A model generated the notes under the pieces. That model saw only the letters and a list, made by a program, of their open reading frames with translations, did not search any database and had not been told where the DNA came from. Shown here one piece after another: positions 6,181 to 8,351 of a stretch of 64,000 bases of DNA; the stretch's first letter is position 1, and each line of letters starts with the position of its first letter. The translations under genes and the position numbers were made by a program. The DNA is taken from the NCBI GenBank assembly GCA_028522875.1, contig GCA_028522875.1_3659.1; one strand, written 5' to 3'. This DNA is from a phage.

Positions 6181-6735
6181 ATGAAATACTTTGTAACAAG
6201 CGATACGCACTTTCTCCACCAGCGGGTCATGGAGTTTGATTCATGTCAAAAACACAGATCTCAATATGATCACAATCTTGACAGTATGAATGCGGGAATC
6301 ATCACCGAGTGGAACTCCGTTGTGTCACCTGCAGACACTGTGTTCCACCTGGGAGATATTGCGTGCACTAATGATAAGAATATCAACAACTTACTTCCAG
6401 ATATTCTAAATATGTTGAACGGACATATTATTCTTGTTCGTGGCAACCATGACACAAGGACGACTGTCAGAATTATGAAAGAGTTCGGTCATGAGGTTGT
6501 AGATTATTACGAGCTTCGCCACAACAAGAATTTGATCTGTATGAGCCATTACCAGTTTGCAAAGTGGAACAGAAAGCCTCACGGATCAGTCCAACTGTTC
6601 GGTCATGCTCACGGAACCACACAACAGTTGTTTGGCAGGCAGCTTGATGTCGGTTGGGATGTGTGGGGGAGACTCTTACCATTAGAAGAGGCATACCGTA
6701 TTGCAATGAGTTTTGATATTGACAGCAGGGAGTAA
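6181..6735 (+). CDS. calcineurin-like metallophosphoesterase
   Basis: Start at ATG 6181 behind GAGGAA RBS; motifs SDTHF (DxH), GDIA, VRGNHDT (GNHD), GHAHG in canonical order. Confidence 0.65.
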   Translation: MKYFVTSDTHFLHQRVMEFDSCQKHRSQYDHNLDSMNAGIITEWNSVVSPADTVFHLGDIACTNDKNINNLLPDILNMLNGHIILVRGNHDTRTTVRIMKEFGHEVVDYYELRHNKNLICMSHYQFAKWNRKPHGSVQLFGHAHGTTQQLFGRQLDVGWDVWGRLLPLEEAYRIAMSFDIDSRE

Positions 6736-6748
6736 TCCCTGCTATTTT
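6724..6748 (+). terminator. intrinsic terminator (8-bp stem, GTAA loop, T-run)
   Basis: AGCAGGGA-GTAA-TCCCTGCT followed by ATTTT; stop codon of phosphoesterase lies in the loop. Confidence 0.55.
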
Positions 6749-6782
6749 AAAGAAAATTGCCACACAAGGAGAATCAGGAGAT

Positions 6783-7133
6783 ATGAAAGATGGGGATAAG
6801 CTGCTATATCTTAAAGTCCCCCTTGAAATACTATCTATGTCAAAAGTTTTGAATGACACAACTGGGGAGGTTGTTGTTCTTGACTTGTATGACAAGATTG
6901 TATACTGCTACCTGCACAACTGGTATAAGCTTGGAGGAAATTCACGCTTCACACCAAGCACAAGGAAAATTGCAGCAGATGTTGGGATAAAGAAAACAAA
7001 AGCAGCAGCGTGCGTTAAAACTTTAGAATGTGCAGGAGTGGTTGAAACATCCACACAAGGGAGAGGTAAAAGATGCACATTTTCCAAAGTTTTGCCACCA
7101 GAAGAAGTTATTCGAATGTCAACAACTGGTTAG
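6783..7133 (+). CDS. putative helix-turn-helix DNA-binding protein
   Basis: 116 aa; AGGAG RBS; segment STRKIAADVGIKKTKAAACVKTLECAGVVE resembles HTH/winged-helix recognition region; lies directly upstream of palindrome array. Confidence 0.35.
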   Translation: MKDGDKLLYLKVPLEILSMSKVLNDTTGEVVVLDLYDKIVYCYLHNWYKLGGNSRFTPSTRKIAADVGIKKTKAAACVKTLECAGVVETSTQGRGKRCTFSKVLPPEEVIRMSTTG

Positions 7134-7207
7134 ACCAGTAAAAACTTAAATATCTGTACTATAAGGGTTTGTATGTTTTATGTTCACCATGGAACAGAAA
7201 CTATTAA

Positions 7208-7290
7208 CTGTCCGTGATACGGACACCACTGTCCGTCACGCGGACACATCTGCCCGTAATACGGACACTAACTGTCCGTGATACGGACAC
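7208..7290. promoter_or_regulatory. array of four tandem 19-bp palindromic sites (CTGTCCGT-nnn-ACGGACAC) at ~21-bp spacing
   Basis: Copies at 7208-7226, 7229-7247, 7250-7268, 7272-7290; copies 1 and 4 identical, 2 and 3 each with 1-2 substitutions; inverted-repeat arms TGTCCGT/ACGGACA. Confidence 0.6.
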
Positions 7291-7430
7291 ATAAAGAATA
7301 TAACTAAAATAACTAAATAATAAAAAATAAAAGATCTAGTACTTATGGTACTAAGTACATATACTTAACTTATGTAGAATATACTAGATCCTAAGTACCA
7401 TGTTTTAAATTTATTACTTTCTATAGGTAG
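7291..7430. repeat. AT-rich region with direct and inverted repeats (possible DNA unwinding / origin-like element)
   Basis: ATAACTAAA direct repeat, palindrome GTACTAAGTAC, inverted repeats AGATCTAGTAC ... GTACTAGATC; very low GC. Confidence 0.4.
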
Positions 7431-7700
7431 TGTCGGCCCTTCATTGGCACTCGCCTACGAGGGGCGAGATGCCGGGCCTCCATAGTGCACACATGCAGGT
7501 CTGTTAACATGTGTGGGAGCGAAGCGGCGCAGGCCAAAGGCCGAGCACTAATGTGGACCACCGACGAAAGCTTGCCAGCGCCGTAAGGAGTCGGTTGAGA
7601 GCCTCCCGCGCGAGTTTGGATAAAGTTTATGTGTGGAAACGGACAATGAGGCCCCTAAATCGCTCCACAGCCATATAAACTATACCAAGTAAGGCAATCG
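7431..7700. ncRNA. candidate structured non-coding RNA (GC-rich island A)
   Basis: No ORF of 60 aa or more on either strand; abrupt GC rise; nested helices e.g. CGGCCC/GGGCC, TGGCA/TGCC, CTCGCC/GGCGAG (7434-7479) and CACACATG/CATGTGTG (7488-7515); strand and ends unknown. Confidence 0.3.
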
Positions 7701-7772
7701 CACCAGTTTGATAGAAAAGCTCGTTACAAAGCGATACAGCGAGTTTTTCTATAACTTGAAGAGGAGGCAGCT

Positions 7773-8351
7773 ATGAGTCCACGCAAAGATGACCGTGAAA
7801 AGATTGCAAAACGTTATCAGAATGAAGAACAGATGGAGAAAACTTTCAAGTGGAAGCCAGGTTTCCAGCGTAATCATTCTAACGCTCGTGATCGTAAGCA
7901 TCCGGATAAGTGGTTAACACCGCCAAATGATGGCATGCAGGTTGGTGATGAGAAGGAGCTGTCACCTGGAAAAGATGGCAACTACATTCGCACTAAGGAA
8001 GCAGGTCCAAAGGATGACAGCTATCTTGTAGATAAGGTTCTTGATGGTATTGATGTGGATGTTGACACTGCACGAAACCTTTTTCTTGGTTGGTATCGTA
8101 CAGGGTTTTTCGACATCAAGGCTATTCGTCGTGTTTGCGATATTAAAAAGTCTGCCTATGATGATGACTCTCTACATCGCACTCTGAGACAATACTCAGA
8201 GAGATACGGTCATCCAGTCATCACTCTTGACGATATTAACGAAGTGATGTATCATGCAGAGGTTGTTGCAGGTAGATTCGGTGATGCATATCTCGGTATT
8301 CTTTCTGCAAAAGATGAGGTAATGTTAAATAAAATTTACTATGAACGCTGA
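7773..8351 (+). CDS. hypothetical protein (192 aa)
   Basis: ORF with strong GAGGAGG RBS; no recognisable motif. Confidence 0.45.
   Translation: MSPRKDDREKIAKRYQNEEQMEKTFKWKPGFQRNHSNARDRKHPDKWLTPPNDGMQVGDEKELSPGKDGNYIRTKEAGPKDDSYLVDKVLDGIDVDVDTARNLFLGWYRTGFFDIKAIRRVCDIKKSAYDDDSLHRTLRQYSERYGHPVITLDDINEVMYHAEVVAGRFGDAYLGILSAKDEVMLNKIYYER

Follow-up and report, generated by a model that had tools for sequence, protein, structure and literature searches.

[quoted passage not shown] We favour this reading because the sites are unique and phased, no duplex in the genome is less stable than the AT-rich tract, the protein encoded beside it resembles proven replication initiators, and the layout recurs, with other site sequences, in further genera of the Vequintavirinae. 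rV5-like phages are common candidates for biocontrol and therapy against E. coli O157 and are standard in phage collections, and their origin has never been located; a candidate origin paired with a 116-aa candidate initiator provides a testable handle on the way in which replication begins in a large virulent myovirus that encodes its replisome. The origin is partly anticipated by database labels, but was neither described nor tested earlier, and our literature search found no description of a Vequintavirus origin.

The window, the whole 64-kb stretch of DNA that was analysed, derives from an rV5-like E. coli phage that is 99.9% identical to phage Murica. Its positions 6700-7800 are 99.9% identical to Escherichia phage Murica and 98% identical to rV5, and match 119 phage records, every one of them from the genus Vequintavirus. 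The window runs antiparallel to the Murica record, from which the remainder of the ~135-kb genome was assembled for genome-wide tests (L010, L019, L020). As a side observation, 18 records labelled as Campylobacter phages (MG0656xx; C2, A147, C12 and others) are 95-98% identical to E. coli rV5-like phages at this locus; mislabelling or contamination probably explains them. The features discussed below are as follows.

6719-6748, plus strand: sigma-70-like promoter, TTGACA-18-TATTTT, TG-extended, 10/12 match; precedes the initiator-like gene
6783-7133, plus strand: gene for a winged-helix protein of 116 aa (rV5 gp075), proposed origin-binding initiator with a RepA_N/PLE-RepA-like N-terminal domain only; from sequence and predicted fold
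7208-7226, no strand assigned: iteron 1, CTGTCCGTGATACGGACAC; read directly from the sequence
7229-7247, no strand assigned: iteron 2, CTGTCCGTCACGCGGACAC; one arm mismatch
7250-7268, no strand assigned: iteron 3, CTGCCCGTAATACGGACAC; one arm mismatch
7272-7290, no strand assigned: iteron 4, CTGTCCGTGATACGGACAC; abuts the AT-rich tract
7291-7425, no strand assigned: AT-rich tract, proposed DNA-unwinding element; 135 bp, 20-22% GC
7435-7478, plus strand: GC-rich hairpin 1; 16 predicted pairs, two of them kept through double changes (GC to UA) in the plasmid-like element L125
7508-7614, plus strand: core domain of the GC-rich element; three G.U pairs in the closing helix UGUGUGGG/CCCGCGCG, inner helix ACCGAC/GUCGGU

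The iterons and the adjoining AT-rich tract

The array consists of four 19-bp units whose starts lie 21, 21 and 22 bp apart, so that the four copies at 21-22 bp periodicity described in an earlier note on this DNA are exact in position and spacing. Each unit has inverted arms of 6-7 bp between non-palindromic flanks (C...C) that repeat directly, which makes the units semi-palindromic direct repeats; iterons 1 and 4 are identical including their flanks, and iterons 2 and 3 differ at one arm position each. The array accordingly holds the three or more directly repeated sites in helical phase by which iteron origins are recognised. Within the window, TGTCCGT-N3-ACGGACA occurs at up to two mismatches in exactly these four places, compared with a mean of 0.08 sites in dinucleotide shuffles of the window, none of which (0/100) reached four, and the genome-wide search for further copies that the earlier note had called for returned no other site at up to one mismatch in the rest of the ~135-kb Murica genome. 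The 19-bp site with its three-base spacer holds as four copies but needed refinement: the innermost arm pair varies among copies and phages (T-A, T.G, C-G, C.A), which leaves TGTCCG-N5-CGGACA as the conserved core; the centres of its half-sites are 11 bp, or one helical turn, apart. A search for extra half-sites gave nothing above background, and conservation is lacking for the one at 7639.

When nine vequintaviruses, 5-16% divergent in their coding DNA, are aligned, the array and the AT-rich tract are almost invariant, whereas the 20 bp directly upstream of iteron 1 differ freely among the phages. Phage V18 is short of a single 21-bp unit, the one that spans iterons 2-3. As judged from this alignment, the pattern is that of a cis-acting DNA element under strong selection. 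Two records of the BASEL collection mark an unexplained ‘repeat_region’ over the array, and the record of phage A141 begins within a few bases of the array start, probably at an assembly break caused by the repeats. Scanning IMG/VR with the exact site gave 104 isolated matches, roughly the number expected by chance for a 14-base pattern, with no second phased array among the 80 matches listed. Separately, an unrelated and GC-richer phage contig (IMGVR_UViG_3300042691_021677; L100 2303-3421) carries three exact copies of TGTCCGT-N3-ACGGACA within longer TTGTCCGTGCCACGGACAAGGAACC palindromes. These copies are dispersed over 1.1 kb, the two that were inspected abut ORF boundaries, and the palindromes look like terminator or regulatory hairpins.

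The very AT-rich DNA that the earlier note had seen after the sites, with its inverted and direct repeats, is indeed there, and it adjoins the iterons as the unwinding element of an iteron origin does. When nearest-neighbour duplex energies were computed across all ~135 kb, no segment proved less stable than 7291-7425, whether the window size was 50, 100 or 130 bp. It contains interleaved inverted repeats (7333-7341 with 7382-7390, and 7345-7355 with 7391-7401), short direct repeats, and GATC at 7333 and 7387, both invariant in the nine phages. On the minus strand, 7324-7336 reads GATCTTTTATTTT, an exact copy of the oriC 13-mer consensus GATCTnTTnTTTT and the sole exact match in the window; since the number of 13-mers at one mismatch is at chance level, we treat this match as a minor point. 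Sites for host factors, which occur in many but not all iteron origins, were not apparent: between 7100 and 7800 we found only two DnaA-like boxes, each with one mismatch, which equals the background of the window (2.9 per kb), and no IHF consensus.

A second large non-coding region, at about 102.3-104.8 kb of Murica (L010 31264-33817), contains the second least stable duplex of the genome. It has an 18-bp perfect inverted repeat with copies 117 bp apart, GCAACTAT palindromes with GATC, and TGTGTGGG and CTGTTTACGCT motifs that resemble those adjoining the GC-rich element described below. Possibly it is a second origin, the real origin, or a hub of early promoters, and its existence lowers our confidence in the locus at 7.2-7.4 kb (about 63.8-64.0 kb in Murica and about 65.2 kb in rV5) as the sole origin.

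The adjacent gene, its relatives and other readings of the sites

The small HTH-like ORF (6783-7133) that had been pointed out upstream of the sites proved to be a genuine conserved gene encoding a winged helix-turn-helix protein. It ends 75 bp before iteron 1, and the array lies past its stop codon. Records label the product variously as ‘putative transcriptional regulator’ (many of them), as ‘DNA-binding protein’ and, in RefSeq, as ‘replication initiation protein’. Its best match by both sequence and predicted fold is the N-terminal DNA-binding domain of PLE RepA (4RO3), at 27% identity. The fold, modelled on a 37-sequence alignment (a prediction from the single sequence, at a pLDDT of 39, was discarded), is a winged helix of the RepA_N/DnaD-NTD type; the model ends one helix past the wing, and the protein has no C-terminal domain. 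The listed fold matches include both initiators and regulators, with the nearest solved relatives being replication initiators and not repressors, and sequence profiles of gp075 also match winged helices of the MarR/GntR/CodY type. The DNA-binding domain of staphylococcal RepA, another proven initiator, is also among the most similar; its similarity in sequence is not significant (E about 0.8). In Pfam, gp075 falls just below the cut-offs for DUF6945 (27.4/28 bits), a family for which we found no description in the literature, and HTH_36 (24.5/25 bits), and it matches neither RepA_N (PF06970), at E<=1, nor Phage_rep_O.

Searches for close homologues yielded five clusters, with tblastn finding Vequintavirus only, and a search of 1.8 billion representatives added eight weak matches, three of them repetitive and spurious. 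Distant relatives were reached by synteny, with a neighbouring phosphoesterase gene as anchor, and by profile search, which gathered 39 proteins in four subfamilies. A Seunavirus protein annotated as ‘replication initiation protein’ is 38% identical to gp075 over 48 residues (pairwise E 5e-7); the match to the homologue of the Klebsiella phage KP12 type is weaker. In every locus examined, the homologous gene lies at or near a divergent strand switch and beside a long intergenic stretch. The Seunavirus type has two GCCTAnnCTCAAATTGA repeats 23 bp apart, and the KP12 type has three TATTCC-N6-GGAATA palindromes, of which the adjacent pair is spaced at 24 bp; in both types the repeats abut an AT-rich tract with three to four GATC. 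The matching tract is the least stable 100 bp of three loci (L011, L012 and L018) and the second least stable of a fourth (L017). Across these sequences, sites and proteins change together while the architecture stays, and the gene for the putative cognate initiator adjoins the repeats elsewhere as it adjoins the iterons here.

The layout is not universal: where the syntenic switch point lies in the phi92-like phage PD06 there is an AT/GATC tract, but neither a detectable gp075 homologue nor clear iterons. At two loci that encode homologues of 182-195 aa (L014, L015), the repeat finder gave no convincing phased array. Longer homologues, of 182-217 aa, carry C-terminal extensions. Four of those in alignment A5 (P0011, P0014, P0019 and P0021; 194-217 aa) end in an acidic ...DAPF or ...EPF resembling the tail of SSB, and P0013 ends in ...DEAIL. 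These acidic tips hint at how the relatives recruit replication proteins, and the comparison suggests that recruitment may be a separable function, lost or moved elsewhere in the rV5 lineage.

Gene orientation switches divergently nearby, from the minus strand (left of 5662) to the plus strand (from 5706 onward), and the cumulative GC skew of the window reaches its minimum at this switch, at 5-6 kb and 1.5 kb from the array. This is weak evidence for an origin, since phage skew tracks the direction of transcription. The authors of the rV5 genome paper, who used skew analysis in search of an origin, likewise obtained only strand-switch points, one of which falls here (66,675-66,725 in rV5), and they neither named an origin nor commented on the repeats (PMC3606486). 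The promoter at 6719-6748 is the annotated P76 of rV5 and overlaps a small hairpin that is annotated as a terminator in Murica; no promoter is annotated in rV5 between P76 and P75, which lies ~1.8 kb downstream.

The earlier note had left the choice between an origin and a cooperative operator. We consider it unlikely, though it is the main rival reading, that the sites are operators only, with gp075 a cooperative transcription regulator of its own level or of read-through to the downstream genes and tRNA cluster, and with an AT-rich tract that is ordinary intergenic or promoter DNA. Palindromes at 11-bp half-site spacing are typical of operators, and both the regulator label in many records and the matches to MarR/GntR/CodY-type winged helices would agree with such a role. 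Nevertheless, our scan found no sigma-70-like promoter over 7205-7290 on either strand (phage-specific promoter types lie outside its scope), and the sole candidate nearby (minus strand, 7186-7158) has a -35 that varies among relatives. A pure operator is weakened by the absence of such a promoter overlapping the array and by the position of the array past the stop codon of the gene; it also leaves unexplained why the least stable tract of the genome is near-invariant with conserved GATC, and it sits poorly with initiators being the nearest solved relatives of gp075. In the genera with Seunavirus- and KP12-type proteins, the sites are at the 5’ end of the gene and overlap what is likely its own promoter; by inspection, those of the Klebsiella-phage type locus L018 lie on and to either side of a TTGACA-N17-TACATT promoter that serves the homologous gene. 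The same arrangement would be expected of a plain autorepressor, but initiators commonly autoregulate through their iterons, and this overlap therefore does not distinguish between the two models. It does mean that the protein probably autoregulates as well, and an autoregulatory role of gp075-type proteins in addition to initiation is plausible on this comparison. The iteron array with an unwinding element remains the reading that we favour.

A packaging site of the pac or cosB kind, bound by a small winged-helix terminase subunit, appears very improbable. There are precedents for it: lambda cosB has phased repeats bound by a small winged-helix protein, and P1 pac has GATC-rich repeats. Genes for the large terminase subunit (TerL, starting at 11565) and the portal (15077) also follow downstream of the array on the same strand, and no small terminase gene was recognised beside TerL, where spanin genes are found instead. 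Against this, the gp075 gene is 4.4 kb from TerL, behind five small ORFs, seven tRNA genes and the spanins; its homologues sit among genes of nucleotide metabolism and replication (in L015, 1.4 kb from the PolA gene); and its predicted fold is of the RepA_N/DnaD-NTD type, with no terminase small subunit among the listed fold matches. A strongly unstable AT-rich tract is, to our knowledge, not a feature of pac sites and would be unexpected there. Two further observations were made in this part of the window. The TerL gene is in at least three pieces (11565-11993, 12907-13197 and 14483-14974), with an endonuclease VII-like gene (12209-12799) and an HNH endonuclease gene (13311-14006) between them, which suggests two mobile introns or inteins in 11565-14974. 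Inside the tRNA cluster, at 10118-10216, ARAGORN predicts a tRNA-like gene of 99 nt whose anticodon has four bases (atcc); GenBank records label it tRNA-OTHER, and the Rfam tRNA model does not report it at its gathering score.

Finally, we give very little credence to a role of the units as RNA, namely as four tandem 7-bp hairpins in the 3’ UTR of the gp075 mRNA that serve stabilisation, pausing or termination, or protein binding: each unit is able to fold into a stem of 7-8 bp closed by a loop of 3 nt, the array is probably transcribed, as the absence of an annotated promoter between P76 and P75 implies, and the unrelated contig L100 uses the palindrome as dispersed intergenic hairpins, but it is the sequence of the arms and not their pairing that is conserved (copy 3 has a C.A mismatch, and phages FV3 and SYGMH1 have further mismatches with the outer pairs uncompensated), the strict 21-22-bp phasing and identical unit flanks fit recognition of double-stranded DNA, and no T-run follows any hairpin, a terminator scan having found none.

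A GC-rich structured element and satellite-like plasmids

Directly after the AT-rich tract comes a block (7430-7620) of 60-63% GC in a genome of 42% GC, which is nearly invariant within the genus and absent from other genera. When E. coli replicons were searched, partial homologues of this block turned up in circular ‘plasmids’ 13.2-13.7 kb in size (L125, NZ_CP020521.1, plasmid unnamed4 of strain 190; L126, NZ_CP043822.1; L253; L254; L255), of which the 39.6-kb record NZ_CP043822.1 is a head-to-tail trimer of such a unit. Between phage and plasmid, one helix of the core has three of its six pairs changed on both sides (AU to GC, CG to UA and AU to CG), which with the two in hairpin 1 makes five compensatory changes overall. 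In the core, 99% of cells are paired, compared with 32-47% in slid controls, and the covariance model (R1) finds exactly one match per phage genome and per plasmid monomer, at 106-125 bits. The covariation appears only in comparison with the plasmid-like elements, as the alignment within the genus contains no compensatory changes, and folding of the single sequence did no better than shuffles (z -0.8 and -1.8). No Rfam family matched at its gathering score in the window, the best at E<=10 being rli43 (24 bits vs 100). Two other sets of matches were set aside: a 17-mer scan of genome_contigs gave chance-level matches in unrelated bacteria only, and five of six IMG/VR matches of the element were unconfirmed by the covariance model.

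On this comparative evidence, the GC-rich block is a real structured element, either RNA or single-stranded DNA, that lies beside origin-like regions in both replicons, and it is a candidate for a new structured RNA or a single-strand initiation signal. The conserved G.U pairs favour the plus strand and, together with probable transcription of the element, also fit RNA. From its position alone, hairpin 1 may be linked to the origin. Farther on, a 13-bp stem-loop with GCTCGTTACAAAGCGATACAG (7711-7752) stands just before the first downstream gene, which starts at 7773, and does not vary within the genus. Phi92-like PD06 (L013 about 980-1010), a phage of a different subfamily, has an almost identical motif, GCTCGTTACAGAGCCATACAG, ahead of its first rightward gene.

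The 13-kb elements share more than this block with the phage. They encode a major capsid protein and a tape measure protein of the phage's PHROG (phrog_5255), and their baseplate and Neck1-like proteins are 50% and 45% identical, respectively, to proteins of the window. Their long non-coding region has the same order as that of the phage, namely iterons, AT-rich tract and GC-rich element, with at least five semi-palindromic iterons whose sequences differ between elements, and with GATC in or beside the AT-rich tract in most of them. They also encode a winged-helix protein of 303 aa whose acidic tail, ...IPY, resembles that of SSB. It matches the initiator PHROGs 428 and 391 weakly, and its tie to the gp075 family is not firm, hhalign giving a probability of 77% over 44 columns; we claim homology for the winged helix only. 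Judging from gene content and layout, these elements are probably undescribed satellites of vequintaviruses, for which we found no description in the literature. We would tentatively entertain, as a possibility more doubtful than the origin itself, that the origin has three parts: the iterons, the unwinding element and a 110-190-nt GC-rich cis signal that is undescribed, with this third part (hairpins for priming or primosome assembly, or an origin-linked ncRNA) held in common with the satellites so that the same priming or control machinery can act on both. The GC-rich element and the satellite-like plasmids are more novel than the iteron origin itself; if the relationship is true, the covarying element shared with plasmids that carry rV5-type tail genes would open a new helper-satellite system in E. 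coli.

Proposed initiation and comparison with known systems

Based on these features we can present a model for initiation, in which binding by gp075, melting, helicase entry and the start of replication at this locus are all inferred steps. Dimers of gp075 would occupy the four semi-palindromic iterons, which are two helical turns apart and hence on one face of the DNA, and would oligomerise there. The resulting nucleoprotein array would strain the adjoining 135-bp AT-rich tract, which would then melt and admit the phage replisome. The phage encodes a PolA-type polymerase, a primase/helicase and a Pif1-like SF1B helicase, and the entering helicase could be either the DnaB/primase-type protein or the SF1B helicase, with the PolA-type polymerase following. 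Forks would move outward in both directions, co-directional with the two diverging transcription units, and transcription from the promoter at 6719-6748, which would run through the array, may aid opening as it does at oriLambda. Recruitment is the least certain step: because gp075 is a DNA-binding domain only, the helicase would have to be recruited through another surface of the protein or another factor. If the proposal is true, initiators of the RepA_N/PLE-RepA type, which have until now been described chiefly in Gram-positive plasmids and a single Vibrio satellite, would extend in stripped-down form to a whole subfamily of enterobacterial phages.

One close parallel is the origin of PLE, the Vibrio cholerae satellite. 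There, as in the window, directly repeated iterons that contain inverted repeats occupy non-coding DNA close to the initiator gene (Barth et al. 2020, PMC7145576). PLE RepA was assigned to RepA_N by structure, with no evident similarity in primary sequence; the iterons of RepA_N initiators are described as semi-palindromic direct repeats; and PLE replication depends on the phage replisome, including an SF1B helicase (PMC7145576). rV5-like phages also encode a Pif1-like SF1B helicase. PLE RepA continues into a C-terminal domain, whereas gp075, with its 116 aa, ends with the DNA-binding domain, and PLE is a satellite whereas the window belongs to the genome of a 135-kb virulent myovirus. Within the RepA_N class as a whole, the locus has the semi-palindromic iterons and the predicted DnaD-NTD fold, but gp075 falls outside the Pfam RepA_N family and has no C-terminal domain. 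The staphylococcal members (pSK41, pTZ2162; PDB 4pql, 4pt7, 4pta, 5kbj) are proteins of Gram-positive plasmids and carry a host-specific C-terminal domain.

oriLambda resembles the window in iteron count, unit length and layout: its four 19-bp iterons are imperfect inverted repeats bound by O dimers beside an AT-rich tract that is unwound, and the origin is traversed by transcription (PMC7466680). Its position, however, is within the O gene, whereas the array of the window follows a stop codon; the C-terminal domain of lambda O recruits P-DnaB, and gp075 has no such domain; and lambda replicates with the replisome of its host, whereas rV5-like phages bring replisome genes themselves. With neither a Phage_rep_O domain nor an origin within its gene, gp075 does not belong to the lambda O type. 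The AT-rich GATC tract beside initiator sites and the one exact GATCTnTTnTTTT 13-mer recall oriC and P1 oriR, but the window has only this single 13-mer, two GATC and no DnaA boxes above background.

Single-strand initiation hairpins are found beside the origins of several replicons, as in the G-site of R1, ssiA/ssiB of RSF1010 and oric of phage G4. By description, the GC-rich multi-hairpin element of the window, a few hundred bp beside the iterons and the proposed unwinding element, may be like these signals, and its structure would lie on the lagging-strand template of a fork leaving the origin.
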